NCBI GenBank assembly: GCA_964187785.1
Contig: OZ076414.1
Location: 42,222,001 to 42,286,000, forward strand
Length of the DNA stretch: 64,000 bases
DNA from: Amphiscolops sp. MND2022
Taxonomy: Eukaryota
Direction of reading: 5' to 3'
In this document: positions 9,005-50,884 of the stretch, piece by piece
Numbering within the stretch: position 1 is the first letter of the stretch
Layout of the letters: the number at the start of each line of letters is the position of its first letter
Made by a program: the position numbers and the translations under genes
The notes under the pieces: model-generated
What the model was told of the DNA's origin: nothing
Databases searched by the model: none
Seen by the model: the letters and a program-made list of their open reading frames with translations, nothing else

Positions 9005-9366
9005 GGGGAGCATGACGTAGTGGTCAGAGCATTCGGCCTGTGTTGTGGTATCAGATTCGAATCTCTTTCAACTCACCATTGTTGGTCCTTAAGCAAGTCC
9101 TTCATCACTAGCATAGTGGCATGGTCAATGACAAAAAAACACATTTGGTGGAGAAAAGCAAAACAAAAAAGCAACTGTGAGCAGTCAGGCCTTTGTGACC
9201 ATGAGCAAGTCAGTTTGAACCCACAGCTTCAAGCCCACCATTGCTTGACCACTTGGCTGCAAATATGGTACCATAGCTTGCTATGGGGAGATAGTATCCG
9301 AAAGAGCAGATCCTTAGAAGAGCAGAACTACCTATTCGGCGTCCACCCCGCGATAATGGGGAAATT
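9005..9366 (+). mobile_element. tRNA-headed SINE-like repeat, near full-length copy
   Basis: A-box-like TGACGTAGTGG at 9013-9023 and B-box-like GATTCGAATCT at 9054-9064. Body (with palindrome TATGGTACCATA) recurs at 61709-62022 (+) and 62915-63218 (-). Confidence 0.65.
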
Positions 9367-11394: not shown

Positions 11395-12960
11395 AACATT
11401 CTAGTTCACAAAATCTATCAATAGTTTGGCAATAATTGAAAATGATGAAAATAGAAAATTTTGAAATTTTTCCTTTTTCGATGTCAATTCCAGACATTTT
11501 TCATTTGAAAAGCTGCATTTATCGTTCCACTAAGCATACGGGACAACATTTGTTCCTTGTTAACCCTTTCCAACATTCCAATCTCCGGAGGTTGTTGAAA
11601 ATTTTCAAGAAAAACTGCATAAATTTTTGAAAATTGAAAAATTTTGGGATTTTCGTCAATTTCGGTGTCAAGTTGAGACTTTTTCATTCGAAAACTGAAA
11701 CTATCTGATCCCTAAAGACTACCGGACAACAAACTGCTACCTTGGTGAACATTTTCATCATTCCAATCTACGGAGTTTGTCGAAATCGTGACAGAAATTG
11801 CAAAAAAACATTGAAAATAGGAAAATATTGGGTTTTTTGTCGTTTTTGGTGCCAACTTGAGATTTTCTTCATCTAGAAAACTGCATTAAATTCTTCGGAA
11901 AAACTTTTTGGACCAATAATGTTCCTTGCTTACGCTTCGCAACATTCTGATCTACGAAGTCTGTCGAAAATGTGACAAAATTTGCATAAAAACTTCGAAA
12001 AATAGTAAGTTGTGGGTTTTTTGTCACTTTCGGTTTCAATTTGAGACCTTTTTCAATTAGAAAAGAGAAATAATCTTCTCGAAAAAGCCTACTGGACAGC
12101 TAATACGGGCCACTTTGACCGTTTTCAACATTCTAATCAACGAAGTTCTACCAAAATTCGACAAAAAACTGAATAAAATCGTTAAAAATCGGGAAATTTT
12201 TGGAATTTTGGTCATTTATTGGGTCAGTTTTCTCTAACAAAACCGCATTTATCCCTTCCTAGAAAACAATTGGACAACAACCTCGTGCCTTGTTGAACGT
12301 TTGCAACATTCTAATTTGCGATGTTTATCAAAAAATTGACAAAAAACGCATGAAAACGGTAAAAATTGATAAATTTTAGAGTTTTTTTTCGGGGCCAATT
12401 TGAGATATTTTTCAGTAGGAAAACTGCAATAAATTCTTTAGAAAAGCCTACTGGACTAATACGTTTTCCTTGCGGACGCTTCTCAACATTCTAATCTACG
12501 AAGTCAGTCGAAAATGTGACAAAAATTGCATAAAAAATTCGAAAAATAGAAAGTTTTGGGTTTTTTGTCACTTTCGGTTTCAATTTGAGACCTTTTTCAT
12601 TCAGAAAAGATAAATAAACTTTTCAGGAAAGCCTACCGCAGAGCAAATGCGGGCTACTTTGACCGTTTTCAACATTTTAATTAACGAAGTATGTCGAAAA
12701 TTTGACAAAAATTGCCTAAAATTGTTAAAAATCAGAAAATTTTGGAATTTTTGTCATTTTTGGGGTCAATTTTCTGGTACAAAATCGCGTTTATCTCTTC
12801 ATAGAAGACTATTGGAGAATGAATTCGTGCTCTGTTGAACGTTTTCAACATTCTAAATTGCGGTGTCTCTCAAAAAAATGACAAAAGTTGCATAAAAACG
12901 TTTAAAAAATTGAGAAATTTGTGAATTTTTGTCATTTTCGGGGTCATTTCGTCATTAAGG
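11395..12960. repeat. Diverged ~180-bp satellite array with 544-bp trimeric higher-order period
   Basis: AACATT-anchored monomers at ~11395, 11572, 11757, 11941, 12127, 12305, 12485, 12671 and 12847. Pairs 11941/12485, 12127/12671 and 12305/12847 are much closer to each other than neighbours are. Confidence 0.75.
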
Positions 12961-13064
12961 GGTCGTTTTCGTCATTAAAAAAACTCCAAAAATCTCTACA
13001 AATACATATCGCACGAAGCTAAATTTATGTGAGTTGAATTCTACGGGTAACACCCTTAAAGTTA

Positions 13065-13772
13065 TGTAACGTCCGCCTCTGGCATGACAAAATTTCGATG
13101 AAAAATTCGAAATGTGCGACATCGCAATTCAGCAAAAAAGATGGCCGACCTAATAGGAGCGGGAAACTAAAAAAAAGTGAGAGCACGCTGAAGAGAGCAA
13201 AAAAGGAAGGAACCAGAAAGCAGAACGACTATTGACATGAAGATTCGCACAGTGCCGAATGTGACGAGTACTACCCGGTGTTATTCCATCCCTCTGGGAG
13301 AGAATGCAAAACCGTTCCAGAATGGCATGACTGGATCCCCGAAAACCTACAAACAGTAACTGTACTCCCCTTTGGGGCTCATCCCCCTTAATTTGTTGAT
13401 TTGTAATGTATTTTGCTGTTTCGCTTATGCCTGACCTTCTAGATCAGCATTTCATATCTTTAACTGTCAAAATGGTACTTTTTGGATAAACGCTTTTGGA
13501 CCTCGGAAGTATGTAGGAAGTCGTAGGAAGGCTTAGGATTATGTAGGAACGTTTTTACAGGCTTGTGGGGCGTGTCCGGACTTTGAGAGTGCCGGCACGT
13601 CGCCTCGGAGCTCTAACTAGAGGAGCCTCCTTAGACGTTAGAAAAGTCCCCCATGGAGACCGTTTTGGGAGAAAAGCCAGTGTCTAGGAGTGTAGTAAGA
13701 CAACGGTCTCCTGTTTAAGCACCCTAGGCATTGTCCCACTTCCGGGATGTGCGCCGCTAGCCGGACGTTACA
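13065..13772 (+). repeat. 5' LTR (708 bp)
   Basis: TGTAACGTCCG...CGGACGTTACA 11-bp inverted ends. Six substitutions and one 1-bp indel versus the 3' LTR by manual comparison. Confidence 0.97.
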
Positions 13773-13788
13773 TCTGGAATAGTTTTTA

Positions 13789-13806
13789 TGGCGACCACAG
13801 AGGGAT
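13789..13806 (+). promoter_or_regulatory. Primer binding site, tRNA-Arg-like
   Basis: TGGCGACCACAGAGGGAT resembles the complement of a tRNA-Arg(UCG)-type 3' end (...TCCCTYYGTGGTCGCCA). It lies 16 nt downstream of the LTR end. Confidence 0.7.
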
Positions 13807-16800
13807 ATTTTTCCTTACCGCGTCCTGCGAGGAGCAACTCCTGCTTTCCGGCCCTGTAAGGTCCGGATCTAGCAGAAGCCTTTGGGAGGGTCCTAGATTG
13901 TTTTTACTGCTTTTTTCTAGCCCTTTGGGCCTTGTATTAGTGTTTTTCCTGCGTTTCCTGCATGTTTCCGAGGTCTCCAGCCTGAAAAAGACAGTTTGAA
14001 ACAGTGTACCCCCTTGCACCTTATCTGTACTTGTTAAAAGAGCTATTCCGGCCTATCCGGAACGTGTTTTAACGGGTTTTCCAGCTTCTTTTCAGCTAAT
14101 CGGCAATGTACAGGGACTGCGAGGACGGTTCGTGAAGACCCGAGCTAGCTGAGTGCAGGACTACAGGTGCTTCACGTCATAGCCTCTTCCTCCCCACCTG
14201 GTGCCGATTCACCGAAGACAGCTGGGTTATTTCGTTCCCTTTACGTTTTCTAGCCCCAAATTAGTATTCCCAGGCCTGTTTTTGCATAAACTAACTGAGA
14301 AAAATACCCACAGGGTGTTTGCATCAGTTATTTTAAAGTTTGAGCTCGAAAACATCGAAAATAACACTAATAATAGCTCAAATATCGAATTTTCCCGTTT
14401 TGGAAGCCAGAATTTTGTAGAATTGTATACGGCCTATGGGAATACCTGAAAAACGTTCTGTCAGACCTACCAGGTCGAGAACAAAATTTTTGTTGGGCTG
14501 TTTTTTTTTTTGAAAAACATGAAAAATTCAGCAATTTTTGTTTAAAAATCGGCAAAATTGGCCATTTTGACCAATTTTGGTGAGGGCGAAGCCTTGGGCG
14601 TTTGTTCCCAAGCCTCTTGAAAGGCCCAAAAATTTTGTTGTTGAGCTTGGTAGTACGCAATACTACTACCAAGACGATTTTTGACTGCCCCCAATATAAA
14701 TTGAAGTTTTAACATCACTTTTCTTTCATTAAAATAGACCTGAGTGAAGGACCCCCATAGACCTGAGTGTTATTGAAATCAAATTACATATTGCAACTAC
14801 CCCAGCCCCCTGAATAAAGTTATTACGTGTCCTAACTCTACTAATAAAACCAAACGGAACATCAAAAAACATCGGGTTATTGACGAAAACACGTATTTTC
14901 AGTACTGTTCCGAGGGTGTAAAAAGTGCAATCGGGAAATTTTGTGAGAGACCTTGTTTGAAACCTACCAGGTTTCGCTTGCCTATTTCCAGTTAATAGAG
15001 AGCGTAACGTTGCAAACGCCGAAAACCGCAAGCAATTCTGAGCAGTGGTTGTTGAGAAATAGTCGAAAACGCACAATTTTTGCGTCAATTTCGGAATTCG
15101 GCAACCTCGTATTTTCAACAAGTCGAAATCTCTCCTAACAGGAAGAGCTAAAAACGGATTGCACCATCGTGTAGAGCGCAAAAAGTTACGCTAGTAGCGT
15201 GATTTTGATAGCCCTACTTTGAATACCCGCAGAGATAACTTAGCCGCAGTTTTGTTCAGAAAGTGTACCAAATTGCCGAAAAATCGAAAATTTGATTGAG
15301 CCTGGTGTGATATCTCCGGGATATCCCGGCACCCTAATTTTCCTAATTTCGTCCTCGGGGTACCAAATCCCGACGATTTGTGCAATTTGAGCAGCCGACT
15401 ACCAGCCGAAGCTGAGAAATTTACATTTTTGTGATTTTTGACCCGAAAAAATTGGTACCTCTGGTACATCAAGGTTTTGTCACTTCGGATCGCCCGATGT
15501 TGATCCAGGCACCTCGCCGCCAGATTTTTCTGTTGCGTGAGCATAGGTTACGCTCGCATGCGAAATTTCGGGTAGCTGGGACGCCTAGGACGCGAGTTAC
15601 ACCACTTTTTGCGAATTTCACGACATAGTCAATTTTTCGGTAAACATTGTTAAGTGGCCGCAATACCCATTGGGTCACTTTTGGCGCAATCGGAGATTCA
15701 TTCCCCACGATTTAGCCAGTATAATAGACGGTGTGAAAGTTTCAGGTCGCTAGCAGCACTAGAAGTGATTTTCACCTTCCCCGGAGGTGCTACTTGACGA
15801 GAAAAACAGCGTTTCGAGCGAATTTTGACTGAGAACCCGCGCACTTCTAGTCCTGACGTGCCTCACTCAGGGCTGAAACGACCTGTTTAGCGCATCAAGC
15901 AAATCCCACACGGCTCACTGAACTTACAAAATCCGCGTAGGGTTGGCCCCAAGACCAGCGACCTCCCACTAAACACTCTATGAGACTAAGAGACGGTAAC
16001 CCTAAAAACCGAAATTCGTTTCTCGCCCGCCACCAAAGTCGCCTAGGTGCAATTTGCTCGCTATAACCACATGTACTCTGCGCCTCGTGTACCCTGAGGG
16101 TGCGAGAGTGTGCCCGGGAGCACCAAAGCAGTCACAGACCAGGTTTGCGGGACGCGTAGAGAAAGTAGAACAAGTACAGAAGAGACCACCCATATCGTTG
16201 TAAACTCTTTTACCCACGAGCCGTGAGGCCATAGACCAGGGTACCACTCAATACTCAACCCCCACGTTCCCAATCAATCCCCAGATCATTCCCCGTCCAT
16301 CGCCCATCCATTGTTCCCGAATCAACCTCGTCGTACAAGCGTATAAAACAACCTAAAGTGACCCCCACTGCGCTCTGCGCGGGGGATACAAAAAGAAATC
16401 TCCGCCGACGAGTTTGAAGCTAACCCAATAGTTTTCAGTTAACGGTAGCAGCAAGGCCTGCGGTCACCTAAAAGTAGAAGTCAACTTAGCGTGTAGTAAT
16501 CTGTAGTTGTGATCGCCAAAAAAAAACTGAAAAATTTTTGCTAAGAAAGCCAAACCTTCTCCTAAGTGAGGGAAAAGCAAACGAAATTTTAGTTAAACCA
16601 ACCAGCGATAGTGTGCCTAGTGCACTCCGAGAGTGCAGGAAGGAGTTCAAGCCCACACAGTAGGTCTCAACCTCAATACACAAGAGACCGGCCACTCCGA
16701 GCGGCTAGGCACGCCGAATAGCTTAGTAGGTTAGTTAGTTAGTGCAGTTTAGATAGTACCCCTTTGAGTCATTCAGCCAAAGCAAACCCTTCTCACTCCA

Positions 16801-16926
16801 TCATTTACCACTTGTTTTGCGGGGGGAAGGGAGTAGACAGAAATCAAAAAAAAATTTTTTTTGCTTGTTGCGTGCCGCGTGGAAACTTCGTACGCAGCGC
16901 GAGCTAAAATATCTCATCCCGTGGCC

Positions 16927-19900
16927 ATGGAACGACGCGAAGCTAACGCTACCATAAGCGACCTCCACGCCACCAATCCTTTCAGAAGGGGAACGGAAGC
17001 CACGACCGAGCAAAACGAATGTAGACTAGATTCCGCCATAGCAGCCATGTTTTCAGAAGTCATGTCTTACTACGTACCGAGCCAGGAACAAAACGCGGAG
17101 ATAGTCGTTGCCACCAGCCAGCCTAACTCCTCGCGAGCCTCCCCCGACAGCACCAATCCACAGGATGGTGCTGAAACCACCATACAAAGAAACACATGGC
17201 CTCCGCTGGAAGTCACTGACTACAGCTTGGAAAATTGGCCAAACTCCAACCAAGGGCCCACATGTGAGCCCAGCACTGCTGACACCCCCATCGAACAAAA
17301 TGACACTCTAACGACTCCACAGGTGGACCCACGGACGGCGGTTGTCGAGAGGAACCCCTCGGGTTCCCAGGAGATAACCAATAGCATAGGCGGGAATCCC
17401 TTTCGGAGCGGATATACGCTACTGGGAGCACCGGCGAAAGCGTCGAGTAGGCCGGCGGAGAATTTGAAAACAACCGTGACAGAGAATCCGTTAAGATACG
17501 TTTTTCGAACGCCACCCTCGGCGGGTCCAAAAGTTAACTACGCGAATGCGAGCCGAGCATCCCACACGCCAAGCTCTCAAGCCAGCGCCGACACCAATCC
17601 TGACTCAACGATAACCAAAGCAAGAAAGGAAGCGCAAGCAATTCGAGAAGACTTTCAGAGTAGCCTAGCTCAGCTAGCCCAAGTCCAGACGAAGCTGGCG
17701 CGGGAAAACAACGAACATGAAATGCGCGCCGACATGATAATGAGGGACATGGACGAGCTGCGAAGAGGTCTTCTGGAAATTCAAGCGGAAGGACGACAGA
17801 ATCAGGGCCGACTGGAGGCGTCTATGGCGTCTCTCAACGATCTGATTAAACAGAGAGAGACCACGGCGGATGCCCGCATGGCTGAGATGTCTGCAGTAAT
17901 GAGAGAAAGAGACCGCCAGGCCGACGAACGCATGAAGGCAATGACGAACACAATGCAGCGCCGCGACATGGACTCCAATGTCCGCATGGCGGACTTGATG
18001 ATGGCAATGCAAGATTTGACGCTAGGCGTGAAAGCAATTGTGTCGCAGACCCCAGCACCGCAGGCACAGACAGCGCCACGGGCGCCCCAAAAATACCAGC
18101 AAGCCGATATGCCCTCTACAAGTGCAGCTCCCCAACCTCCCTACCGGACGGTAGCACAGCACACAGTGGAGCCTGCTAGGCCCCCAAAACTAGTGCCACC
18201 CGCGACGTACAGGCGTGACCCGTCGAAAGCTAGTAAAATGGCTAAGGTATCCCACGCAGAGTCACGAGACGCCGGCACAGACCCCATGACTGACCCGCCG
18301 TCGTTCGACCAGTACGCCCGCGGGGCATCGACCTCGGGCGATTTCCACTCCGTTGCCGACGAAATGAACACCCGCAGGACCAGCTATTATACGGCCGATT
18401 CCAGCGCGGCATTCCGCCTACCTGCGCGAACGCAGACGTTCAGGGACTTTGTTCCGCGGCCAGTGGCCACCAGCACGCAGCGCAAGGTGACAACCAAGCG
18501 GAACCTACAACAAAGCAAAGGCGAACATGGCGACCTGGAAGAGATGCCCTCGGTGGCAGAAGAGGCCCCGGACACGCCGAGGACTACCCAACGACAGGCA
18601 CTAGCAGAAGCAATATCCACAGCCATGTCTAAAGGCTTGGAGCCGTTGCTCGCCGTCAAAGAGTCTAAAAACAAACCCACGAAGTACAGAGGAACCCGAG
18701 ATGGAAATGCAGATGGGTGGATGATGCTGATGAAACGCCACTTGGAAAACGCACACCCGAAGGCGACCCCCCTTGACAAAGCATGGACGATAATTGAGTA
18801 TCTGGAGCATGAAGCCAGAGACTACATCACGAACAAGTCCGAGGCCGAGAGGGACACGGATGAGAAAGTGTTCGCGCTGTTGGCGCGTCGCTTTGGGACC
18901 GGCTCCAGCAAAATCCACATCCAGCAGCAATTCAGAACCCGCAATCAGAATAGCGAAGAGGACTACATGCAATACCTTGATGCCCTCGAGGGCTTGCGTA
19001 GCCAGGGTTACCCTAATGAGGAGGTAACGGTTCGTAGATACGAAATCATGCAAAGATTCATCGAGGGAGTACGCAACTTTGAATTGAAAAGAAACCTCGC
19101 GCTGATGTACGCACCGGAACAATACGTGGAGGCTCCGCCGACAGTGGAAGCCCTTCGCTTCACGGTACAACAATATTTACGCATGCGCGGCTCCGCTCGC
19201 TCGGACAACTACCCAATGATACCCCCTCAACAACAACAGGCCAACCTCCCACAACCTAATCAGTCTCCGGCAGCACCCCTGCCGGCCCAAAAAATGCAGC
19301 AGCAGCCCCCCCAACCAGCGGCATACCAACAACAACCTGCGCCACCGGCAGCCTACCGACAGCAACCCCAACGGGCGTGCTTCAATTGCGGAGATCCGTC
19401 GCACTTCGTGGTGGACTGCCCCCTGAAGGACCGCGCACGGAAGCCGGTGCAACAGCAAGTGAACTCCTGTCACACGAACCCGTCCGGCAGTTGGATGTGC
19501 CCCTCTCAGCCACATGGCTTGAACTATGATGTTTTCCCAGCATCCCTACCAACCCAAGGCACAGTTGCCTTCTGCATCAATTGCGGCCGTACCGAGCACT
19601 CGGCGTCGGAATGCATGGCCCCGGAGCACATGAGCCACGAAGAGCAAATCCGTGCAGCGTGGTATGCTCCTTCGCCAAGTCAGTTCGACGGCCTGGGGCA
19701 AGACGACCAGGTCCGGGTAATATCGATAGCGGAAGATGGAGGCCCCTCCCGACCGGTGGTAGTCACCTGTGGCGAGAAGCAGGTACTCACCACGCTGGAG
19801 GCACCCGCCCCAGATTGCACAGAAACACTTATCTCGATACACCTACTTCTCTCGGTCGAGCAGAAGTCGAAGCCCACGCTGACCTTAACGAAGCTGAAAG

Positions 19901-22500
19901 AGGAGTTATGCAGAAACGTGAAATATACGATCGCCGCGCGACCGCTTCCGCATTTTGCAAGGGAAGACGAAACGAAACTGGCCCCAATACAGAAAGTCAA
20001 AACCATCTCTCCGGTGCCGGTAGCCATCAACGTCGACGGTGTAGACATGAAGTTCGACGCTATCGTAGTCCTAGAAGGTCACTTCCCTCAGGGATTGTAC
20101 TTGGGCCGCCAGGAGCTGCGGTGTTACAACATCGGGGTGCAAGACGCCCAGGGGGAGGCTCGCATAGATGAACGGGCATCCTTGGTGGTTGCCTTTGGCA
20201 ACACGATCCAGGAGCCAATACCCTTGTACGGGATGGTTGACACCGGCTCGGGTGTTTCCATCCTCTCCCTCAAGGCCTATCAAAAGATTGCAGCAGCCCA
20301 CGCCTTGAGCCTCCTGCCTTATGACATCCAGCTGTATGCTGCCAATGGCAAAACGATCAACACCATCGGCATTGCCGAAGATGTCAGCTTCCAGTTGGGC
20401 GGACATACCCTTCGAACCAACTTTATAGTCATTGCCGATCACCTAGGTGCGGAGGACTTTTTACTCGGCAGAAACTTCTTGCGCACGTACAACGTCCTCG
20501 TGGACTTGACGGCCATGAGGGTCACCATACGAGACCCCAAAGCGCCACGCCACTTCAAACCCGTCCATGAGGTAAGTGACCACGAGCCATCCTTAGTGAT
20601 ATCCACCGAAAAGGTAGTCCTAGGCCCCTATGAGCGTAAGCTAGTGCGAGCCCAAGTTATTTCTCAAAAGCACAATGAGTACCACTTCCGGAACGTAATG
20701 ATTCGCCCCCTGGGGGTGCATAAACGGTGCCCCTTTGTTTCAGAAGATACATTGACGTCTGTTGGAGACGAGGGCATTGTTTTCATAGCCGTACGAAACA
20801 CTGCCGCCTTCGAAAACGTAACTATTCCAACCAAAATTGTCCTTGGTAAGGCAGAACCTACAAACTTTGTGTTGCAAACTGTGGCTGCCGATACGTCAAC
20901 CGAAATTGATAAATCTTTGTTTGAACAAGTTAATAGAGTTTATACAGATGAATGGTTGAGCGAAACGAGTTCGAAATTCAGTTCTTTTGCTCAAAACTTT
21001 TTGTCCTCTACTGAGATGTCCGCGGAAGGGTTGTCGGAAAGTGAGAAGCATGCTAGGACAGACCCACAGTTACTAAAACATATACCAGGTCCAGACCTCT
21101 CTTCCGTCCTTTCTTCATGGGGGGAGGGGGCGAGAGATCAACTAGCAAGCGTCTTGAGTGAGTACGATGATCTTTTCATGAAGCACAAGGCTGACATAGG
21201 GAGGTGCAAAATAGCGAAACATCGCATAGAACTAGAGCCAGAGGCTATCCCGCACAGAGAAGGCGCTCGGCGCATGTCCCCTGATAAGGCGGCGAAGGCC
21301 AACCAAGAGGTGCAGAACTTGTTGGCCCTTGGCCTAATTCAACCCTCCTACTCGCCGTGGGCAAGCGGGATAGTCATGGTCAGGAAGAAAACAGGCGAAC
21401 TTCGCTTCTGCTGTGACTTCCGGCCGCTCAACGACGTGACGGTCAAGGACGCGTTCCCATTGCCCAGGATCGATGAAAGTCTATCCCGGATTGGCAATGC
21501 GAAGATCTTTACAAGTATCGACCTAGCGTGGGCCTTCTGGCAGATACCGCTAAAGAAACGCGATAGGAGGAAAACGGCGTTTGCCTGCGAACTGGGCTTA
21601 TTCGAATGGCGGCGCATGCCCTTTGGGCTGTGCAACGCTTCAGCCACATTCCAGCGCTCCATTACACGAGCCCTGCAACGGATCCAGCAGCGACACGGGA
21701 GTGTCGTCATGGCTTACATTGACGACATCGTCATCGCCACGGAAACCATAGAAGAACATATCGCACGAATCAAGGAAGTGTTCGAATGTCTCCGAGAGGC
21801 TGGATTCAAGATACGTGCCGAGAAATGCGACTTCATGCGCACGGAGACAAAGTACCTGGGACGGGTGGTATCCTCAGAAGGCATCAAGCCAGACCCCGAG
21901 GCAGTGATTAAAATCCAGGAATGGATGCCCCCGAGAAGCAGAGAGGAGCTTCAGAGCTTCCTGGGGTTCGCGAACTACTACCGGGACTTTGTGCCGTTTC
22001 ATGCAGCCAAGGCGCAACCCCTGCAGGAGTTGCTCAAGAAGAATCAGCATTTCCACTGGGAAGTGAAACACCAAGTGGCCTTCGATGCCGTGAAAGAGGC
22101 CCTAGCAAACGCGACCGCTTTGGCAGCCCCAAACGAAGACGGACGGTTCGTGCTCGATACCGATGCTAGCGCGGTAGCAATAGCTGGAATCCTGCACCAG
22201 GAACAAGAACACAATGGGAAAACCGTCCTACGGCCAATAGTCTTCGAAAGCAAGTCCCTGACGAAGACGCAACTGAATTATGGAGCGCCCAAGTTGGAAA
22301 TGTATGCAGTGTTTTACTTCATCGAGAAGTTCCATTCGTACGCTCCGCGTGGACAACCAGGCCCTATCATGGCTTAAAACATACTCCATGGACCAAGCCA
22401 TGATAGGCCGCTGGATAGCGCGTCTGGATCAGTACAACTTCGAGACGATCCACCGACCTCGCGCGCAGCACCGGACGGCCTCAGCAAACGGACTAACGAC
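16927..22500 (+). CDS. gag-pol: Gag-PR-RT-RNase H part of the polyprotein (frameshifted in RNase H)
   Basis: GCCATGG start at 16927. Two CX2CX4HX4C knuckles (19378, 19573); protease VDTG (20239) with LLGRNFL; RT SPWASGIVMV...FCCDFR...AYIDD (21715-21726); RNase H TDAS (22162). No stop or frameshift between gag and pol. Confidence 0.95.
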
Positions 22501-24525
22501 TATGTGCACCGAGAGAAAATCCTTGAGAAGTTGCCGGAAGTGAGCGAGGGGTTCAACTTCATGACCCAGAAGGACTATGAAGCGCTCCCCACCGTGCCAT
22601 ACTTCGATAAACACGGACGCCTGATACCAGACCACCCAGAGCTTCCACCGGAAGCTCGAGCCCAACTCCCACTGCTGTATATCTTGGGGAAGGGGCCCAA
22701 AAGGAGCTTGCAAGAGCCCTCGGCGAGTGATGCCCCGTGGTACCCTCAAGTACAGTGGGAAACGACGCCCACCATCGATGAAGATCACCGACCAAATCAC
22801 ATCCTCAGCATCGCAACCGGAGTGCCACCGGCACGCCTAGACACTGGAGAACCTGACCCTGCGCTTGACGGGATGCCTCCCGAGTGCCAAAGACAAGCCC
22901 ATGCCCTCAGGACTGTCGGGACAGAGCTGCAAGAACACTTTCTAACTAGGCGCGGCCTCAAAGATCTGCACTTAGCGCAGAGTGGGGACGTGCACCTCTT
23001 GGCGCTGAGGAAACTCATGAAAGGCGAACCATTGGATGACGCCATGTTCCCCGAAGACGTGCAGGACTTCGCTCGGCGCTACTTCCACCAAAAGAAAGAC
23101 CTGCTCTTCCTGAATCCGGACGACATCCTCTGCGTCAACTACGTTCCGCAACAGCGTGCGCTGCACGTGCGACCGTGCATGATAGTCATGCCCCAACTAT
23201 ACCAACACGAGATCTTGTATAGGGCGCACGACGAATCGGGACATCAGGGCGTAGGGAAGGTGCTAGCAAGAGTACAAGAGCGGCACACTTGGCCGGGCAT
23301 CAAGCGTGACATAGTCAATCACATTAAGCACTGCCTAACCTGCCAGCAAACCAAACACCCTGCCGGAAACCCCTGCTACCCCCTGCAGAACATCAACAGC
23401 AGCAACTTCAACGACCTGGTGCAATTTGACCATCTGAAACTGTGCAAAACCGAGTCGGGTAACACCGGTCTCTTGGTCATAATAGACCACTTCACGAAAT
23501 TCGCCGAGGCTATCCCGTGTGCCCACGACGAATATGATGCCCAAACCACTGCCAAGATTATCCTCAATAAATGGTTTGCCAGGCACGGCACTCCAGCTCG
23601 TATGCAGTTGGACAATGCCACGAATTTCACAGCTGAAATCGCGCAGGAGTTAATGAATGCATCACAGGTGACAAAGGTGACATCCACACCGGCGCATCCC
23701 CGAGGAAATGGACTTGTGGAGAGACAGAACCGAACACTGCTTACGCTGCTCCGAGTCTACACGTCGCGGCGAATGCAGGATTGGGACGAGCACATCGATG
23801 GAATCCTTGGTGCCTACAACTCTACTAGGCACGCCACCACGGGATTCTCTCCCTACATGCTCCAACATGGAGCCGAAAAGTCCATTCCCTTGTCATTCAT
23901 CTACCCGGAGTTTGCTGCGCGAGGATTCAACTCCAAAGAAGAATTCGTAGAACACCTTCTAGCCAGGCAACAAGAAATCCATGAACTAGTTAGAAGAAAC
24001 ACGCACCAAGCACAGCTAAGGCAAAAGCTAAAGTTTGACTGCCACCTCAAGGCCAAAGCGCACGCCGTAGGCGATGCGGTGTGGGTGTTCTGCCATATCA
24101 TACCCAAAGGTGGCACCCGCAAGCTGATCCGCGCATGGCGTGGACCCCACAAGGTGACTGATGTGTTGCAGGACGGACGACTATATGTGCTGGACACCGG
24201 TCAAAAGGTCCATTACGAAAGATTGAAAAGACACGTGCCCGCCCCCTGGGACTGGGCTGCACACCAGCCCTTTGGGCTGGACCAGAATGTAGCCATTATT
24301 GCCGATCCGTACGTAGAGGAAAGCAACGAGGAGATAACATCGGACGTCTCTCGAGACTCTTTCCTACCAGAACAACTTCCGGAAGTGTCGTTCGAAATGG
24401 AGCCGACAGGATCGGTTCACCCCGCACCATTCAGACTCGTACGCAAACGAGCGAGGAATACCCCGAAGAAGATTCAGCCACTTCGGATATCCCTCCGACT
24501 CGGACTCAGAAAGGGAAGAGAATGA
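22477..24525 (+). CDS. pol: Tether plus integrase part of the polyprotein
   Basis: HHCC (AHDESGHQG...HCLTCQ), DDE core (QFDH, LDNATNF, LVERQN) and GPY/F-like WRGPHKV. Confidence 0.93.
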   Translation, partial: GLSKRTNDYVHREKILEKLPEVSEGFNFMTQKDYEALPTVPYFDKHGRLIPDHPELPPEARAQLPLLYILGKGPKRSLQEPSASDAPWYPQVQWETTPTIDEDHRPNHILSIATGVPPARLDTGEPDPALDGMPPECQRQAHALRTVGTELQEHFLTRRGLKDLHLAQSGDVHLLALRKLMKGEPLDDAMFPEDVQDFARRYFHQKKDLLFLNPDDILCVNYVPQQRALHVRPCMIVMPQLYQHEILYRAHDESGHQGVGKVLARVQERHTWPGIKRDIVNHIKHCLTCQQTKHPAGNPCYPLQNINSSNFNDLVQFDHLKLCKTESGNTGLLVIIDHFTKFAEAIPCAHDEYDAQTTAKIILNKWFARHGTPARMQLDNATNFTAEIAQELMNASQVTKVTSTPAHPRGNGLVERQNRTLLTLLRVYTSRRMQDWDEHIDGILGAYNSTRHATTGFSPYMLQHGAEKSIPLSFIYPEFAARGFNSKEEFVEHLLARQQEIHELVRRNTHQAQLRQKLKFDCHLKAKAHAVGDAVWVFCHIIPKGGTRKLIRAWRGPHKVTDVLQDGRLYVLDTGQKVHYERLKRHVPAPWDWAAHQPFGLDQNVAIIADPYVEESNEEITSDVSRDSFLPEQLPEVSFEMEPTGSVHPAPFRLVRKRARNTPKKIQPLRISLRLGLRKGRE

Positions 24526-24556
24526 ACCGACGGTCCAGAACCCAGCACCGCCAGCG

Positions 24557-26557
24557 GTGTTCCCCGACCTGGACGACCTAGAGCCACTGTACTCCGACCA
24601 GGAGGAAATTCAGCCAGCCGCACCTCCAAGTCTGATACCATGCCCCTCAGGGACCTCGGCCCCGCTACTATCTAATCCGTCTCTGACGGATACCCTAAGC
24701 AACTTTCCCCTGTTTGGCCCCCGATCGGAGGACCCAATCAGTCCGGTGGAAATAAAACCACCGTCAGGAACCGAGGGCGAGGAGGAGATGGTCCATCGAA
24801 GTCCAGTCCAGTGCTCAACACAACCCGGTACCACCAACCGCAGAGGACGGCCTCGAGGCCGACCACCAGGTCGAGGACGACCACGCGCCATACCATCCAG
24901 TAAGACCACAACATCTTCGCGAACACAAACCACGCGATCCAGAAGAGGCCCTAGGACAAGGGTAAGCACTCGTGCACCCCCTCGAATACTGGACCGAGCT
25001 ATGACTCTGCCAGAGATACCCGAGACCCAATCACCACCGGAAAACCAGAACTCTGAGCTGGGACCGTCATCGCGAACATTACGATATCAACTGCGAGCTA
25101 ATAGAGCACCGCGGTACAAGTGTGGAACCTGTGGTTCCCGCAACTGTAGTTGCGTCAAGCGACTGGCCTGCGACTCGCCGGACCACCGATTGGCCCGGGG
25201 AGCGGTCATCCCTGCAAGGGAACTCTCAATGGCCAGGGCACCATATCATCCACAACACGAGATCCTGACCGTGCAAGCCCAGCGAGAAAAAGTTGAGGCC
25301 CCTCCGCTGGTACACCACCTAGTCATCACGGTAGAGAAAACATTCACTAGTGTAGAGCCAGAAGTGATACCACCGCTGGAAGAAACGCTCAGAGCAATGC
25401 ACGCGACATCTCCCTCCGACTGCCCCACTTACCGATTCAAGGAGTGGACACCACCTCACCGAGGCGGTCTGGAGTTCACTCTCCATGCCATCATACCGCC
25501 CTTGCCACCCTCAATAACGTTCGGCGAGCTAGCGGAAGAGGATAGCAGCCCGGAGATGGTTCGCTGTATCACCGCACACCAACTGTGGGAGAAATACCGC
25601 ATTGCCTCCCCGCCGGGAGACATATACCAGCCCACCAAAGGATGGTGGCTACTCGTCACCTCTCTCGACGCAACGACGTTGGTGTCTCCCACAACGCTGT
25701 TGATGTGCTTAGAGAGCTTGCGCACTGTAACGGAACCTGAGAGTACACTCTGTTTCCACCTGGCCGACATCCATCGCGGCAAGTTCCTAAGCCAACTTTG
25801 GCTACAATTGATTGCGGTCATCTTCTGCCGACAGGCGAAGATATACTTCTTGGATCGGCAATCTTATACGCCGGAAAAACCTGTCACGGTCAACGAAGCA
25901 CTCTCCATAGCACACGATTGGTCATCCACCAACATGGGAGGTAGACCGCTACGCCGCACCGTCTGGGAGGACCGCAAAGCGATCTTACAGCATCTAGCAC
26001 CCCAACCTGATGGTGACCAGAGCAATACCACTGGTAAATGGCTCATAACCCAGCCCAAGACCAGGCCGAACTACCTACCTTGGATAACTTATGCCAATAC
26101 AGATATCCTGCAGGCCCCTGGCACTGTGATACTGTGTTGCCCTGCAGATTTGCTCTCCTACTCTGCCACCACCCGTTATGTTATTCGCGAATACGGTCAG
26201 GAAAACATATTTCGCCTAAGGCCGGCAGTTGGCACCGCAATTCGTTTAGTCCGCTCGCCAACTGCACCTTGGAATAACGAAATTTTCCTTCTATGTACCC
26301 GAGCATCGAATAAACACCCACTCTTACATGAAGTACTCCATGCGTGTTTGACGAATTTGATACTCCAGCTCCATCGAAACCGAATTACCAGAATCCACTT
26401 GCCCATGTATGATCCCGAGCGGTCGATGAACCTCCTAGCAGCCTGGTACGCCACGCTACGCGATCACTTTGCAGACCAGAATATTGCGATAAACTTGCAC
26501 GATCGCGTCTATGTCTCGATAGCATCGGTGACGTCAGTCGATTTTGGCGGTAGTTAG
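24557..26557 (+). CDS. Probable C-terminal extension of Pol: Pro/Arg-rich linker, CxxC-x4-CxC cluster, two TARG1/OARD1(Poa1p)-like macrodomains
   Basis: The frame is open upstream of the GTG (RGIPRRRFSHFGYPSDSDSE). RYQLRANRAPRY resembles an integrase C-terminal basic motif. Segments ~25469-25858 and ~26081-26503 follow the TARG1 pattern (ITY..D, G..I.L, IFLLCT, L..L...I..I.LP, F....I.I.L). Confidence 0.7.
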   Translation: MFPDLDDLEPLYSDQEEIQPAAPPSLIPCPSGTSAPLLSNPSLTDTLSNFPLFGPRSEDPISPVEIKPPSGTEGEEEMVHRSPVQCSTQPGTTNRRGRPRGRPPGRGRPRAIPSSKTTTSSRTQTTRSRRGPRTRVSTRAPPRILDRAMTLPEIPETQSPPENQNSELGPSSRTLRYQLRANRAPRYKCGTCGSRNCSCVKRLACDSPDHRLARGAVIPARELSMARAPYHPQHEILTVQAQREKVEAPPLVHHLVITVEKTFTSVEPEVIPPLEETLRAMHATSPSDCPTYRFKEWTPPHRGGLEFTLHAIIPPLPPSITFGELAEEDSSPEMVRCITAHQLWEKYRIASPPGDIYQPTKGWWLLVTSLDATTLVSPTTLLMCLESLRTVTEPESTLCFHLADIHRGKFLSQLWLQLIAVIFCRQAKIYFLDRQSYTPEKPVTVNEALSIAHDWSSTNMGGRPLRRTVWEDRKAILQHLAPQPDGDQSNTTGKWLITQPKTRPNYLPWITYANTDILQAPGTVILCCPADLLSYSATTRYVIREYGQENIFRLRPAVGTAIRLVRSPTAPWNNEIFLLCTRASNKHPLLHEVLHACLTNLILQLHRNRITRIHLPMYDPERSMNLLAAWYATLRDHFADQNIAINLHDRVYVSIASVTSVDFGGS

Positions 26558-26977
26558 GAACACGTTTCGCTCTCTTCTTGGCAAATCAGACCACTGGCCT
26601 TTTGTATTGCCTTTTGTAACTTGGAAAGCACTTTAGGTTTTAACAATAATGCACCGGTGAGTGCAAGTTTTAGTAATAACCACATGAACTTTTTAGCCTT
26701 ATGTTTTGTGTGTTCGTCCTAAAAAGTTTGAGTGACCATCCGTTTGCGTGATGTTTTAACCCCAACTGTGACCTGTTTTTTCAGTTTTGTCCTGTTGCTT
26801 CGCCTCTGCGCGGCTTCCCCAGTTATCACATCAAACAAATCAGTCTTGCCATCACAATCTTCGGTGCTAAACACTCCTTTATTATCATTTCCAACGGACG
26901 CATCTGCGCGAAACCGCCTGCCTGCACCCCAAAACGCTGCGCGTGCCCAACAAACCACAAGGAGCGATGCACCTCCA

Positions 26978-29900
26978 ATGATGAGCGAAATAGATGGTCG
27001 AGTCGACCAACTAGCTCTCGTTCAAGACACTCTACTAAACGGAGCGACACCCACAATGATCGCTGGCTTTGCCATGATCATCGCCCAAATCCAAGCCCAG
27101 GCGGCGTACCCTGATGTCAGTCTCACCATCACCAGCCGGGTCGGCCCGATAGAGCGCTCTGCCATCTTTCGCGACGGTGCCTGGCACGGGTACGACTTGA
27201 CCCATAGCCTGATTGATCCCCGCTCCCACTTAGTCTTTGGAGAGCCTACTAGGCCTCCCATGGACCAGGAGCGATCACTGCGCATTTCGCAATCGGCAGT
27301 GCAGACACCAACTACAACCCCGTTGCCCTCACCACACCCTGTACGATTCAGCTGCACACTGCCAATGGTGCCACCCCCAGTGCTAACACCGCCCATGCCT
27401 CTGGCATCGGACGGTATCCGACTACTGACAACCCAGACATCCAACTTCATGCTTCCATCTGCCTTTCAGGGGGAAGGGGTGCAAGTAGGCAACACAACAA
27501 GCACCACCCTGAGCGAGGAACAGCCCAGAGACAGCCGCCCCGCGAGAACAGTGACGTTTAAGGACTCGTATGAAGAATTGATCCAATCGTCCTCCAGAAC
27601 CGAACCACAAGTCTCGGAACCAGCCAGCCTAGTAGGCTTCCAGATGGACCCACAATTGCGACAACGCCAACGAGAACAGCAGAAAGCTGAGAGCAAGGCG
27701 GCCAGCACCGTGGTAGACCTCCGGGAGAAGATTAACGCTGGAAAGCGAGCTAGAGAGGCGGCCGAACAGGCTGGGCAATCGAGCTCGACTACTACCCCGC
27801 AACCCCCCGCTGCATCGCCCACACAACCAGAGGCCAGGAGACCGAGAGTAACGCGCGAGCTCCTCACACATGCAGAAAAACGGCAGCTGGACATCACTGC
27901 ACGCGACGCACTGCGTCTCCAGCGGGAAGTGCCAACCACAACGTCACCAGAAGACCCACTACGACAGAAGTTCGAGGTCGCTACTGGAACAGGGGACCTC
28001 GCCACTAGGCAGAAAATAGAGAAAGCCACAGTGGGAGTACTCTACAATCGCCCCGTCAAGAAACCCGTGTTCACTCGGGACGGATGCCCCCCATGGTTCA
28101 ACCGCATGCGGGCAGAACTGGAGAGAGTGAACTCAACGTACATGCGTGTTCCCGACAGCTTCCTCCGACAGCGCCCTGGCCGCTTTGACGAAGACCGCCT
28201 GCGAACCAAGAACTATGCGCGGAACCCTGTTACAATCTTGCCCATGGGAAAGGACCTCCTACAGAAAACTAGGATAGCCTTCTTCGTCGACTCGACGATG
28301 AAGTCTTCCTTCAATTCCCACAACACCCTCATGGATGTCAGAATACTGAATATGCCTTGTACCACACTGAATGAGATGGCCGAGGTGACTGACAAAATGT
28401 TCACCCAAGCGGGAGCAGAGACCATCCCACTTCCTCCGTTGTTGGTGTATTCGAACGTGATAGACCACCTCGCTCTGCGGGGCACCCTGGAATTCTTCCG
28501 GCCGGACCATGAGAGGTTCACCGAGGGGTTCGTCACTGACGAGGTAACTAACTATGTGCAGACCATGGCCAACATTGTCCAAGCCATGCGCAGAAAGAAA
28601 GCCACCACTGGGACGGTGTTTATGTCACCTCCAGGCTACGTATACTTTCCCCGGACCCTTCAACAATTCTTGTACTTAGTGACGGAGGCCGCATATGCGA
28701 GAGATCTGCCTTTCTACATTGTGGCGCCCAACCTACGCATCAATAACAATAGTTGGCGTCCCTGCGAAGCCTCATACCCGGCCTTCATCGCCGAAGTCTC
28801 CAAGGCCCTCCAGTCATACGTTGGTTACCGCGGCAATTCCCAAATGATAATAGATGAGGCCACAGCGTTCGACTATGGCATGGAAATGGCCCGTCGATCA
28901 ATGAAAGAGCGCGGAGACCGGGTAGTAAATGACCCAAACGAGAACGAGCGTGATAACCTGGTGGATAACCTCTGGTTTGAACGCCGGGATGAATCCACCC
29001 TGGATGAAAAGACGCACGAACCCAAATTCCACAAAGAACTCACGAGCCTGATGAAGAAAACTGAAACGATTCAAGGCGATAGGAAGAACTCGTCCATCTT
29101 CCCTATAGCGCAAGTGTCGTTGGACGCTGAACCTGGGCTAAGATCACCCACCTTAGCCATGCTGTCAATACTGGCCCAAGATATCGTACGAAGGAATACT
29201 CGAGAGCCAACACACACGTACCAAACATGGCACGACCAACTGCGGGAACCTCTAAGCCAAGTCGCGGAGCGGCTAGGCATACCATTTCCTGTGTTCCTTC
29301 ATAACATCTCTCCCTTCTGGCTTCCCTCCCTAGTACAGGCCGAGTACGGCCTAGATGAGCAGCGGATGCGCTTGTACATGGACGCCATGGAAAGAGCCAC
29401 CATCAGCGAAATGCTAGCATATTTGATGGCCGTGGGGTTGACTATGATGTACCGAGGACCGTCATCCCTCATACAGAAACTCGTGCTTAACAAAGGAGGC
29501 TCAGCCCTGTTCAGCTTCTTGGTCTTTTCGCAAAATCAAAGGAGCTGGATATATGCGCTCATTGAAACTCTGGACCCGGTGGGTTCCTTGAAGTTGAAAG
29601 CGCAACTAGATTTGAACATTCAAGCTCTCCTGGTGTGGATTTATTCCACCTGGGTCAATGTTGCTGGCATCATGCATCCTCTGGATGAGTGCCCGGCTAT
29701 CAGCCGAGACCCCAGTCAGCTTCCAGGGTTCCTGTTCCCGACACAAATGGCAACATTGATGCTCGTGGAAACAGAGGACCTGATCCCACTCATCGCTCCT
29801 TTAATCTGGCCCATCTTCGGCGCAGTTATGGCCTTGCGGTATCCCACGCAGGCCTTGCGAGTGGCTGCAGTAGCCCCATCGCTCTCAATTCTGCACTTCG

Positions 29901-31009
29901 TGACCTCCAATGGGCCCCTTCAGGGTCCCACCTATCAATCAATAATACGCAGCTTCGCCAACTTGCGACCTCCCATGGCATACACCATAATCAAAGACCG
30001 CCAGCAGGTGGAGCACAACTACCTAATGATGATCAAAGCGCGAGCACGCAGCTCGCTCCCACTGCCAATGGAAATCCACCCGGTCGCTTGGCTACATGCC
30101 CCCCTTAACCCAAACAATGGAACAGTGGCAACTTTTGATGGGTGGGACGTGCCAGTTGTCTTGCGCATCTTGAGCACGATTATCCAAAGATTGGGTGGTC
30201 GCCGCAAAGGAGAGGAGCCCACTGGGTTGTTATATCCCTATGCATGCGACATTTCCAGGGTATACTGTGCGAGAGCGGAGCCCCGCGATCATACCGCCAG
30301 AATTCTAAATACCATCACGTGCTGGGCCCAGCCGGAGCTCGTAGACCTCGCCATCCACCAGACTTTTCAACAGCTGCTAACGACTGTTCCAACTGTAGCG
30401 AGAGAACCCAACAGGAAGGACCTGCCCGTGAGCACAGACGTTCCCAGTAACCCGCGCATTGCGCTAGAGATATTCGTGCGCCTGCATGGTCTCCAGCGAG
30501 AACAGACTCGAGCTGTAGGAGAAGAGTACGCTAGGGGAATACAAACATTCAAGCAGCTATTCACCCAGCATGGTCATCAAGAACTGGCGGACGGACTGCC
30601 AAACCTGGAGCCAACCGAAGCTATCCCGGGAACTAGCGGGTTGGGCGAAGCTGCCTCTGACGGCCCCCAGACCGTCCCTCCCACATCCCACCTCACTCAA
30701 GACACCGATGAGTCATTGATGGAAGGGGTACAAGACGATATCTCAAACGTCATGCCACCATCAGAGGAGCCCATGACCGACAATAATTTCACACTCTCTG
30801 ATGCCGCTACCCCTGTAAGAGACGAAGCGGAGACTGGTATCTCAAACATGGAGGCGGCGGATATAGAGTCGGAGCTTAACAACCTACTGACTATGGATGA
30901 GGAATCATCGCCCCCCTTCGAGGCGCCCGATTCGGCCGTCCAAAATACAGTGAACACCATGGCCAGCACTTCCACGCAGGAAGCCCCACAAGATCAGCTG
31001 TTGGAGTAA
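26978..31009 (+). CDS. ORF3, intact 1,343-aa protein (frame open from 26732): N-terminal domain, Pro-rich/coiled linker, SGNH-like domain, hydrophobic helical domain, acidic tail
   Basis: Over 4 kb without a stop, between pol and the PPT. IAFFVDSTM / NMPCTT / VYSNVIDHL / NSWRP occur with the order and spacing of SGNH blocks I, II, III and V. Confidence 0.8.
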   Translation: MMSEIDGRVDQLALVQDTLLNGATPTMIAGFAMIIAQIQAQAAYPDVSLTITSRVGPIERSAIFRDGAWHGYDLTHSLIDPRSHLVFGEPTRPPMDQERSLRISQSAVQTPTTTPLPSPHPVRFSCTLPMVPPPVLTPPMPLASDGIRLLTTQTSNFMLPSAFQGEGVQVGNTTSTTLSEEQPRDSRPARTVTFKDSYEELIQSSSRTEPQVSEPASLVGFQMDPQLRQRQREQQKAESKAASTVVDLREKINAGKRAREAAEQAGQSSSTTTPQPPAASPTQPEARRPRVTRELLTHAEKRQLDITARDALRLQREVPTTTSPEDPLRQKFEVATGTGDLATRQKIEKATVGVLYNRPVKKPVFTRDGCPPWFNRMRAELERVNSTYMRVPDSFLRQRPGRFDEDRLRTKNYARNPVTILPMGKDLLQKTRIAFFVDSTMKSSFNSHNTLMDVRILNMPCTTLNEMAEVTDKMFTQAGAETIPLPPLLVYSNVIDHLALRGTLEFFRPDHERFTEGFVTDEVTNYVQTMANIVQAMRRKKATTGTVFMSPPGYVYFPRTLQQFLYLVTEAAYARDLPFYIVAPNLRINNNSWRPCEASYPAFIAEVSKALQSYVGYRGNSQMIIDEATAFDYGMEMARRSMKERGDRVVNDPNENERDNLVDNLWFERRDESTLDEKTHEPKFHKELTSLMKKTETIQGDRKNSSIFPIAQVSLDAEPGLRSPTLAMLSILAQDIVRRNTREPTHTYQTWHDQLREPLSQVAERLGIPFPVFLHNISPFWLPSLVQAEYGLDEQRMRLYMDAMERATISEMLAYLMAVGLTMMYRGPSSLIQKLVLNKGGSALFSFLVFSQNQRSWIYALIETLDPVGSLKLKAQLDLNIQALLVWIYSTWVNVAGIMHPLDECPAISRDPSQLPGFLFPTQMATLMLVETEDLIPLIAPLIWPIFGAVMALRYPTQALRVAAVAPSLSILHFVTSNGPLQGPTYQSIIRSFANLRPPMAYTIIKDRQQVEHNYLMMIKARARSSLPLPMEIHPVAWLHAPLNPNNGTVATFDGWDVPVVLRILSTIIQRLGGRRKGEEPTGLLYPYACDISRVYCARAEPRDHTARILNTITCWAQPELVDLAIHQTFQQLLTTVPTVAREPNRKDLPVSTDVPSNPRIALEIFVRLHGLQREQTRAVGEEYARGIQTFKQLFTQHGHQELADGLPNLEPTEAIPGTSGLGEAASDGPQTVPPTSHLTQDTDESLMEGVQDDISNVMPPSEEPMTDNNFTLSDAATPVRDEAETGISNMEAADIESELNNLLTMDEESSPPFEAPDSAVQNTVNTMASTSTQEAPQDQLLE

Positions 31010-31597: not shown

Positions 31598-32304
31598 TGT
31601 AACGTCCGCCTCTGGCATGACAAAATTTCGATGAAAAATTCGAAATGTGCGACATCGCAATTCAGCAAAAAAGATGGCCGACCTAATAGGAGCGGGAAAC
31701 TAAAAAAAGTGAGAGCACGCTGAAGAGAGCAAAAAAGGAAGGAACCAGAAAGCAGAACGACTATTGACATGAAGATTCGCACAGTGCCGAATGTGACGAG
31801 TACTACCCGGTGTTATGCCATCCCTCTGGAAGAGAATGCAAAACCGTTCCAGAATGGCATAACTGGGTCCCCGAAAACCTACAAACAGTAACTGTACTCC
31901 CCTTTGGGGCTCATCCCCCTTAATTTGTTGATTTGTAATGTATTTTGCTGTTTCGCTTATGCCTGACCTTCTAGATCAGCATTTCATATCCTTAACTGTC
32001 AAAATGGTACTTTTTGGATAAACGCTTTTGGACCTCGGAAGTATGTAGGAAGTCGTAGGAAGGCTTAGGATTATGTAGGAACGTTTTTACAGGCTTGTGG
32101 GGCGTGTCCGGACTTTGAGAGTGCCGGCACGTCGCCTCGGAGCTCTAACTAGAGGAGCCTCCTTAGACGTTAGAAAAGTCCCCCATGGAGACCATTTTGG
32201 GAGAAAAGCCAGTGTCTAGGAGTGTAGTAAGACAACGGTCTCCTGTTTAAGCACCCTAGGCATTGTCCCACTTCCGGGATGTGCGCCGCTAGCCGGACGT
32301 TACA
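31598..32304 (+). repeat. 3' LTR (707 bp)
   Basis: ~99% identical to 13065-13772, with the same inverted ends. Confidence 0.97.
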
Positions 32305-44272: not shown

Positions 44273-44276
44273 GTTT

Positions 44277-44294
44277 TGGTGCCGCGACACGGGA
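44277..44294 (+). promoter_or_regulatory. BEL primer binding site (tRNA-Phe/His-like)
   Basis: TGGTGCCGCGACACGGGA matches 15/18 to the complement of a typical tRNA-Phe 3' end. Confidence 0.65.
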
Positions 44295-44363
44295 AGGCAA
44301 ATTTAACCCATTTGAGCTTTGTGAAATTTGCCTATCTGACCGCTGTGAAAAAAGCAAAAGACA

Positions 44364-50870: not shown

Positions 50871-50884
50871 AACGGGGTCGGCAT

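Follow-up and report, generated by a model that had tools for sequence, protein, structure and literature searches.

A 64,000-nucleotide stretch of the genome of Amphiscolops sp. MND2022 (GenBank assembly GCA_964187785.1, contig OZ076414.1, positions 42,222,001 to 42,286,000 of the forward strand; hereafter the window, numbered from its first letter) contains a 19,240-bp Ty3/Gypsy long terminal repeat (LTR) retrotransposon that houses two tandem macrodomains. Both domains are confirmed as having the macro fold of the TARG1 class (TARG1 is also named OARD1 or C6orf130), and they are homologous to each other well beyond chance. In intact relatives of the element, the pair is the natural C-terminus of the Pol polyprotein, in frame after the integrase. 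The ADP-ribose pocket of TARG1 appears to have been rebuilt in both copies, and the reading we favour, at about even confidence, is that of a pseudo-macrodomain at the integrase end of Pol, acting as a binding module whose partner would be something other than ADP-ribose.

The assignment of the fold is based on structure prediction and profile comparison. An AlphaFold model of 362 amino acids (aa) covering the pair had a mean predicted local distance difference test score (pLDDT) of 68.5 and a predicted template modelling score of 0.49, with the second domain confident, while the first domain modelled alone reached a pLDDT of 80.7. Macrodomain 2 (26069..26515, + strand) is a complete TARG1-class fold by AlphaFold, Foldseek, VIA and profile, and macrodomain 1 (25556..25855, +) is a shortened one by AlphaFold, Foldseek and VIA. 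For domain 2, the top eight Foldseek matches were all TARG1/C6orf130 (best E 2.6e-9, template modelling score for the target 0.83, root-mean-square deviation (rmsd) 2.3), and VIA, which covered 48,161 chains independently of Foldseek, placed TARG1 first (Z 16.6, rmsd 2.6, 138 aligned residues) and DarG second (Z 15.3). For domain 1, the top eight Foldseek matches were again all TARG1 (best E 3.7e-5), and in VIA TARG1 (Z 11.4, rmsd 3.0, 109 aligned) was tied with DarG (10.8). An earlier note, made from the letters alone, had proposed tandem TARG1-like macrodomains here, and with TARG1 as the top structural match for both domains that proposal is borne out.

At the sequence level, alignments were built from a homologue search with 158 matches at E<=0.001 (the best 120 considered, 41 used in alignment A1), and a further search gave 380 matches, of which the best 150 were considered. 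A 12-sequence domain-2 profile with distant relatives added (A5) matched TARG1 with E 2.2e-7 over chain residues 7-144 of 146; narrower domain-2 profiles gave E 0.55 and 0.089, and a phmmer search of the PDB with the window pair as a single sequence returned 0 matches. The two domains matched each other in hhalign with a probability of 86.8 and E 4.3e-6, compared with at most 3.1 in 20 column shuffles; this figure refers to trimmed domains, as profile comparison on untrimmed alignments was uninformative. Scans with Pfam, PHROGs and NCBIfam gave no macro family at useful E-values for the window domains and their relatives, and Pfam Macro (PF01661) at its curated cut-off gave no match to the window domains; the best relative for this family was a stretch of P0343 (E 0.064, 1 of 12 members). 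By predicted fold and profile, the domains belong to the ALC1-type macrodomain class (TARG1/DarG/Poa1p), of which SCO6735 is a further member. A viral fold library returned assorted macrodomains of invertebrate RNA viruses, poxviruses and phages, and no retroelement was named among its top 50. The nearest Atlas clusters were phage hypothetical proteins (0.91-0.92), with a Macro cluster at 0.90; as phage tblastn gave no macro match, these clusters are no sign of a phage origin.

With regard to position, both domains lie in the third frame of the coding region, an open reading frame (ORF) at 24338-26557 (+) that is open throughout. All of the motifs checked from the earlier note are present in this one frame: PPGDIY (starting at 25610), WWLLVT (25643), TLCFHL (25745), and AKIYFL (25835) in domain 1, and WITYANT (26081), EIFLLCTRAS (26279), RITRIHLPMY (26381), and FADQNIAINLH (26468-26500) in domain 2, which ends 14 residues ahead of the stop codon at 26555-26557. 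The domains are preceded by a low-complexity Pol-tail linker (24338..25555, +; motifs read directly) with three RGRP motifs at 24842-24883, which we take to be AT-hook-like, and a Cys-rich CGTCG..C.C box at 25112-25153, a possible zinc site; RGRP is also present in the intact relatives P0267 and P0314. Within this divergent linker, the Cys-rich box is kept between subfamilies (58% between P0267 and P0314).

A search for longer relatives yielded 59 proteins of 1,099-3,091 aa, mostly Gag-Pol of ~3,000 aa, and 58 of the 59 carry a precomputed rve match. Pol in intact relatives runs from protease through reverse transcriptase, RNase H, integrase, and GPY/F-type tail to linker, domain pair and stop; in the tail itself, the RGRP linker and CGTCG box are followed by domain 1, a spacer of ~70 aa, domain 2, and the stop. 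Among long integrase-containing proteins with domain 2, 59/60 finish within 30 aa past it, the exception being P0336, which continues into a second integrase. A separate downstream gene is rejected, the domains being fused to Pol in intact relatives. The earlier note had placed the pair downstream of the integrase; the order holds, and the pair is not merely downstream, but the fused C-terminus of Pol. In the window copy the frame is broken twice, within RNase H (~22,340-22,480) and after the integrase (~24,410-24,500), as seen in a three-frame view, and the second break also appears in tblastn, where intact relatives used as queries change frame. Because of these breaks, which could be mutations or assembly errors, the pair is severed from Pol in this copy.

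TARG1 uses K84 as nucleophile and D125 to resolve the intermediate, and its GxG loop holds the pyrophosphate (PMC6397177; this and the papers below are cited from extracts). It was also reported that K84A TARG1 cannot reverse DNA ADP-ribosylation (PMC8501950), and that G43E, I44E, and G123E each abolish ADP-ribose binding and catalysis (PMC5928194). To compare these positions, a residue register was taken from mutually agreeing hidden Markov model (HMM) alignments to PDB 4j5r, ungapped through the loop, in which an offset of +6 places G43, I44, K84, G123, and D125 correctly. Domain 2 of the window has Arg at the K84 position (T-R, 26297-26302), retains the Asp20 equivalent, and reads D-P-E-R-S (26411-26425) where TARG1 has G-C-G-L-D, so that Glu naturally occupies the G123 position. 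The GCGLD loop that the earlier note considered missing is therefore replaced, without a gap, by DPERS, a case of a conserved D-x-[E/N/D]-R.

The same substitutions recur among relatives. For domain 2, 225 matches were reduced to 135 near-complete and then to 21 sequences below 70% identity (pairwise median 33%), a set that includes decayed fragments and is non-independent. Its K84 position is Arg in 20/21 (Lys in P0159), G121 is Asp in 21/21, G123 is Glu in 15, Asn in 2, Lys in 2, Asp in 1, Gln in 1, and never Gly, L124 is Arg in 17/21, and D125 remains Asp in 1/21; Ala replaces G43 in 18/21, Pro replaces S35 in 15/21, and Gly is found at the G41 position in 0/21. Domain 1 of the window has Ser at the K84 position and a D-I-H-R-G loop (25766-25780). 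In 17 non-redundant domain-1 sequences drawn from 158 near-complete ones, Lys never occupies the K84 position (Ser/Ala), the D-x-x-R motif keeps its Asp in 15/17 and its Arg in 14/17, G123 is never Gly and mostly Tyr, His, or Phe, and the loop-1 region is ~14 residues shorter. The TARG1 pattern TKx(30,35)Px[IL]GxGxD (PMC6397177) was absent from all 382 fetched proteins and from the window ORF. Judged from these residues, the domains would not belong with active TARG1 enzymes, as they lack the catalytic Lys84, the GxG loop, and Asp125; the loss of the catalytic set noted earlier is supported. They very probably do not hydrolyse ADP-ribose in the TARG1 way and probably do not bind it in that way either. 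As the D-x-x-R replacement is common to both copies, it suggests that the rewiring is older than the duplication.

It appears that this module has been maintained. Comparison of three deep lineages gives a domain-2 alignment at 27-33% identity (E 6e-14 to 2e-17), whereas the linkers of the same lineages cannot be aligned (best E 0.04-0.18), which argues that domain 2 is under selection, as opposed to the neutral evolution that the earlier note had named as a refutation. Between P0267 and P0314, identity is 83% for reverse transcriptase, 67% for integrase, 45% for domain 1, 43% for domain 2, 35% for the linker, and 34% for the spacer between the domains, with no indels in either domain. These values point to macrodomains that are constrained yet faster-evolving than the core enzymes, and the protein data already imply a nonsynonymous-to-synonymous rate ratio (dN/dS) well below 1 on between-subfamily branches.

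In the wider clade, an integrase search gave 118 matches, with more distant subfamilies at ~50% integrase identity, and the family is very abundant, with protein clusters of up to 1,094 members. P0336, P0339, and P0341 carry one domain-2-like domain each, as does P0343. A second degenerate copy upstream in P0343 (probability 4.5 against domain 2 and 0.3 against domain 1; HMM independent E-value 0.014) is not claimed. The distant relative P0349, with 33% identity in the integrase, ends in a weaker macro-like tail (hhalign probability 76, score 35.4 versus at most 19.1 in 30 shuffles; HMM independent E-value 2.9e-5) that also bears Arg at the K84 position; the tail alone gave 0 matches against the PDB and is provisionally regarded as a macrodomain. 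P0348 (3,697 aa) carries an AAA_11/AAA_12 (superfamily 1) helicase at its C-terminus and no macrodomains there. Because a helicase is present instead, the Pol tail may be a swappable accessory slot. In a tree built from 33 integrase rows (the window and 32 chosen fetched proteins, with a midpoint root for drawing only), all rows with a clear domain 2 lie within one 21-row clade (support 100/97). P0348 and P0349 fall outside it, on long branches with unsure placement. Several rows of the clade have no domain 2 in the protein record because the ORF ends early.

From this clade pattern, an order of capture, rewiring, and duplication may be proposed. A Gypsy-clade ancestor would have captured a macrodomain of the TARG1/DarG class onto the C-terminus of Pol, after the integrase; the pocket would then have been rebuilt, with the catalytic Lys becoming Arg and the pyrophosphate-binding GxG loop becoming D-x-[E/N/D]-R; and in the window lineage the rebuilt domain would have been duplicated and its first copy shortened. 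The most likely partner of the module would be a protein of the host or a feature of its chromatin. Jointly with the basic RGRP linker, the module might tether the integration complex or its precursor, a role to which we give slightly less than even confidence, by analogy with the chromodomains at the same position in chromoviruses. Chromatin targeting of integration, which the earlier note had also raised, stays plausible because the module is in frame after the integrase. As the charge of the pocket appears reversed, acids standing where TARG1 presents backbone amides, a basic peptide is our guess for the preferred ligand. It is doubtful, if conceivable, that the charge-reversed pocket (Arg84, D-x-E-R) reads a host chromatin peptide or a non-ADP-ribose nucleotide adduct and thereby steers or protects integration; if true, macrodomains would have here their equivalent of the chromovirus chromodomain, and the module would form a new macrodomain subclass, in which a series can be seen from near-canonical forms (P0349, P0343) to the rebuilt and duplicated form of the window.

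Several points weigh against the favoured reading of a binding module with a non-ADP-ribose partner. The identity of the domains between P0267 and P0314 (43-45%) is modestly above that of the linker (35%) and below that of the integrase (67%). The residue register comes from HMM alignments rather than superposed coordinates, and a shift of 1-2 residues would alter the G123 claim; the domain-2 loop of the window has no glycine whatever the register. The Asp20 equivalent is retained in 18/21 and that of Asp37 in 16/21 domain-2 sequences, several invariant polar residues line the old pocket in an enzyme-like manner, and P0343, the most TARG1-like relative, retains G43 and D125 and gives the weak Pfam Macro match at E 0.064. 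The invariant Asp could merely be a helix cap. In addition, the element protease might free the module, which then need not stay on the integrase. Finally, basic residues are not consistently in excess in domain 2 (K+R versus D+E from 10/18 to 17/16), which argues against simple nucleic-acid binding.

The main rival, which we consider rather unlikely, makes domain 2 a remodelled enzyme that would act through Asp20, Asp37, Arg84, Asp121, and Arg124 on a different nucleotide-like substrate, for instance ADP-ribose attached as a cap or adduct to the ends of RNA or cDNA, and in this way protect the nucleic acid of the element, with domain 1 as a dead helper copy. The near-invariance of polar residues in the old active site despite a median identity of 33% fits such an enzyme, as do the Arg at the K84 position in the P0349 tail and the G43 and D125 of P0343; the phosphate-binding glycines are, however, lost and acids stand in their place. 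Moreover, D-x-x-R is kept in domain 1, which has lost K84 and ~14 residues of loop 1, and this retention points to a structural or binding role. The earlier note had preferred catalytically dead domains that bind mono- or poly-ADP-ribose, as decoys shielding the element from a PARP-type defence or as readers homing to ADP-ribosylated chromatin. Its fold, tandem arrangement, catalytic loss, and selection all stand, and the TARG1 fold, the Asp20 equivalent kept in 18/21, and the resemblance of the tandem to reader macrodomains (PARP14 macro 1-2 is among the fold matches) would suit this idea. The pyrophosphate-binding glycines are, by contrast, replaced in both domains, with Asp at G121 in every domain-2 sequence and mostly Glu, never Gly, at G123, and G123E is the standard binding-dead mutation of TARG1 (PMC5928194). 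Since these substitutions most likely abolish the very binding on which a decoy depends, the ADP-ribose part of that interpretation is weakened, and we regard it as improbable.

A purely internal role seems quite improbable as well. Here the module would bind the RNA or proteins of the element itself (Gag, integrase, or ORF3) to serve particle assembly, translation, or entry into the nucleus, perhaps after release by the protease, and would play no part in target choice. TARG1 binds RNA outside the pocket, and both G123E and G43E retain RNA binding (PMC5928194). The module also sits behind a linker of ~400 aa that is potentially cleavable. On the other side, domain 2 has no conserved excess of basic residues, and the helicase tail of P0348 suggests an accessory position open to exchange, not a core part of assembly. 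A further rival is a neutral relic, in which a captured gene is decaying within the polyprotein. The missing macro matches in Pfam, PHROGs, and NCBIfam, the lost catalytic residues, and the upstream frameshifts of the window copy are what it would lead one to expect; but the fold, the length, and particular residues persist in lineages between which the linkers do not align, and 60 long polyproteins have an uninterrupted frame up to the end of domain 2. The relic is rejected and is scarcely credible.

The binding module that we favour can be set beside several known systems. TARG1 itself is the best structural match for both domains and the sole significant sequence-profile match; domain 2 shares its length and topology, and the equivalents of Asp20, Asp37, Thr83, and Pro118 are mostly kept. 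The differences are K84 to Arg (domain 2) or Ser/Ala (domain 1), GxGxD to D-x-x-R-x, the loss of G41 and G43, an identity of ~18%, and the tandem fusion to a retrotransposon integrase. Chromovirus-type Gypsy elements likewise end Pol with a host-derived accessory domain after the integrase, according to extracts of 10.1101/2021.11.30.470311, although the fold here is macro rather than chromo and a linker of ~400 aa stands in front. Pfam scans of the window ORFs and intact relatives gave no chromodomain match. Targeting by an integrase-tail chromodomain has been shown for MAGGY. To our knowledge, LTR retrotransposons have few known targeting modules on the integrase tail, chiefly chromodomains, and a macro-fold module would add a new one.

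Macrodomains in LTR retroelements have a precedent in ray-finned fish, whose epsilon-like endogenous retroviruses bear macro-domain ORFs (PMC4977317, citing Basta et al. 2009); in that source these are described as additional ORFs, whereas the present domains are in frame with Gypsy Pol, doubled, and rebuilt in the pocket. The coronavirus SUD (Mac2-Mac3) offers tandem macrodomains within a viral polyprotein that, while unable to bind ADP-ribose, do bind other ligands (PMC2674928), though it belongs to another macro class with a weaker structural match (Z 6.6-7.5) and serves as an analogy only. Planarian Burro and bdelloid Vesta and Juno (with GDSL or DEDDy ORF3) are large Gypsy elements with captured host domains and an ORF3 in the extracted passages (PMC6431247, PMC5408684), from which the window element, at 19 kb and with LTRs of 0.7 kb, differs; neither paper has the word "macro" anywhere in its main text. 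No macrodomain fused to a Gypsy integrase was found among the matches listed in the open full-text literature, a scope outside which lie subscription journals, Repbase reports, supplements, and CDD, and term look-ups found none in the passages returned from PMC6431247, PMC5408684, PMC6338049, PMC13524379, PMC9503650, PMC7729036, PMC8672886, and PMC4695847. The literature searched appears to contain no description of the conserved rewiring to Arg84 and D-x-x-R or of the tandem arrangement at the C-terminus.

Macro_Poa1p-like annotations are present in some arthropod Gypsy polyproteins, and for this reason the capture of a macrodomain may not itself be new. As Pfam, PHROGs, and NCBIfam fail to detect the domain, such elements probably go unannotated. 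The module could reveal the way in which a very abundant family chooses its sites or escapes the host, and it represents a natural, apparently long-conserved version of the G123E binding-dead mutation. What macrodomains do without ADP-ribose would be testable with a domain of 150 aa and its graded relatives.

The element that carries the pair is bounded by direct LTRs with TG...CA ends. The 5′ LTR (13065..13772, +), defined by alignment to the 3′ LTR (31598..32304, +; preceded by a short purine-rich tract), matches the latter at 703/709 aligned bases, so the insertion is young. A terminal inverted repeat of 12 bp reaches one base past TG...CA (13064-13075, 13762-13773) in these 99% identical LTRs. 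No clean target-site duplication of 4-6 bp was found at the element ends, where TTA alone matches on both sides. A candidate primer-binding site, read from the sequence, starts with TGG 16 nt past the LTR (13789..13806, +), and no tRNA gene was found in the window. The leader between the 5′ LTR and gag (13773-16836, +), at ~3 kb, is an unusually long untranslated region, and its sole + strand ORF of at least 100 aa, one of 103 aa, begins inside the LTR (13688-13999).

Pfam places Gag with CCHC knuckles, protease, reverse transcriptase, and the start of RNase H at 16837..22377 (+; RVT_1 7e-37, RT_RNaseH_2 1e-22, zf-CCHC, aspartyl protease), and the spacer between RNase H and integrase, followed by the integrase itself (H2C2 finger, rve core, GPY/F-type tail), at 22378..24525 (+; Integrase_H2C2 4e-17, rve 2e-7). 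The direct LTRs and the order of gag, protease, reverse transcriptase, RNase H, and integrase identify a Ty3/Gypsy element; the integrase of P0349 has Ty3-G Gag-Pol as its best PDB match (E 2e-33). The spacer of ~240 aa (about 22600-23180, +) is 43-45% identical between subfamilies, like the macrodomains, and is much longer in P0344. GC content is 52-57% in 2-kb windows from 16 to 30 kb, within a GC-rich block at 16-31 kb that corresponds to the Gypsy element, and mostly 32-42% in the flanks.

Downstream of Pol lies an accessory ORF, ORF3 (26732..31009, +; 1,425 aa stop to stop), which has no Pfam match. A degenerate SGNH/GDSL-like region at ~28,250-28,950 (residues ~505-730) is a weak lead only: Atlas values are 0.80-0.82, and Lipase_GDSL_2 is found on 21-30% of members in two Atlas clusters. 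Residues 568-676 match residues 913-1021 of P0339 (29%, E 4e-7), which has a separate GDSL domain at 420-558, and GDSL ORF3s occur in bdelloid LTR elements according to extracts of PMC5408684. An identity as PPR was rejected, as no single stretch passes on its own.

Elsewhere in the window, a BEL/Pao-type LTR element at ~43264-52034 (+) carries DUF1759, Peptidase_A17, and DUF5641 with several in-frame stops, and its LTRs of ~1 kb are 94-99% identical. A degenerate tandem array of ~180-bp units (11381-12949) stops just before the 5′ LTR of the Gypsy element, with related units at 35-38 kb. A repeat family of 200-300 bp is dispersed in both orientations (9049-9365, 61704-62023, and 62961-63218), and inverted arms of 146 bp occur at 9580-10037; these repeats and arms are probably fragments of non-autonomous transposons.

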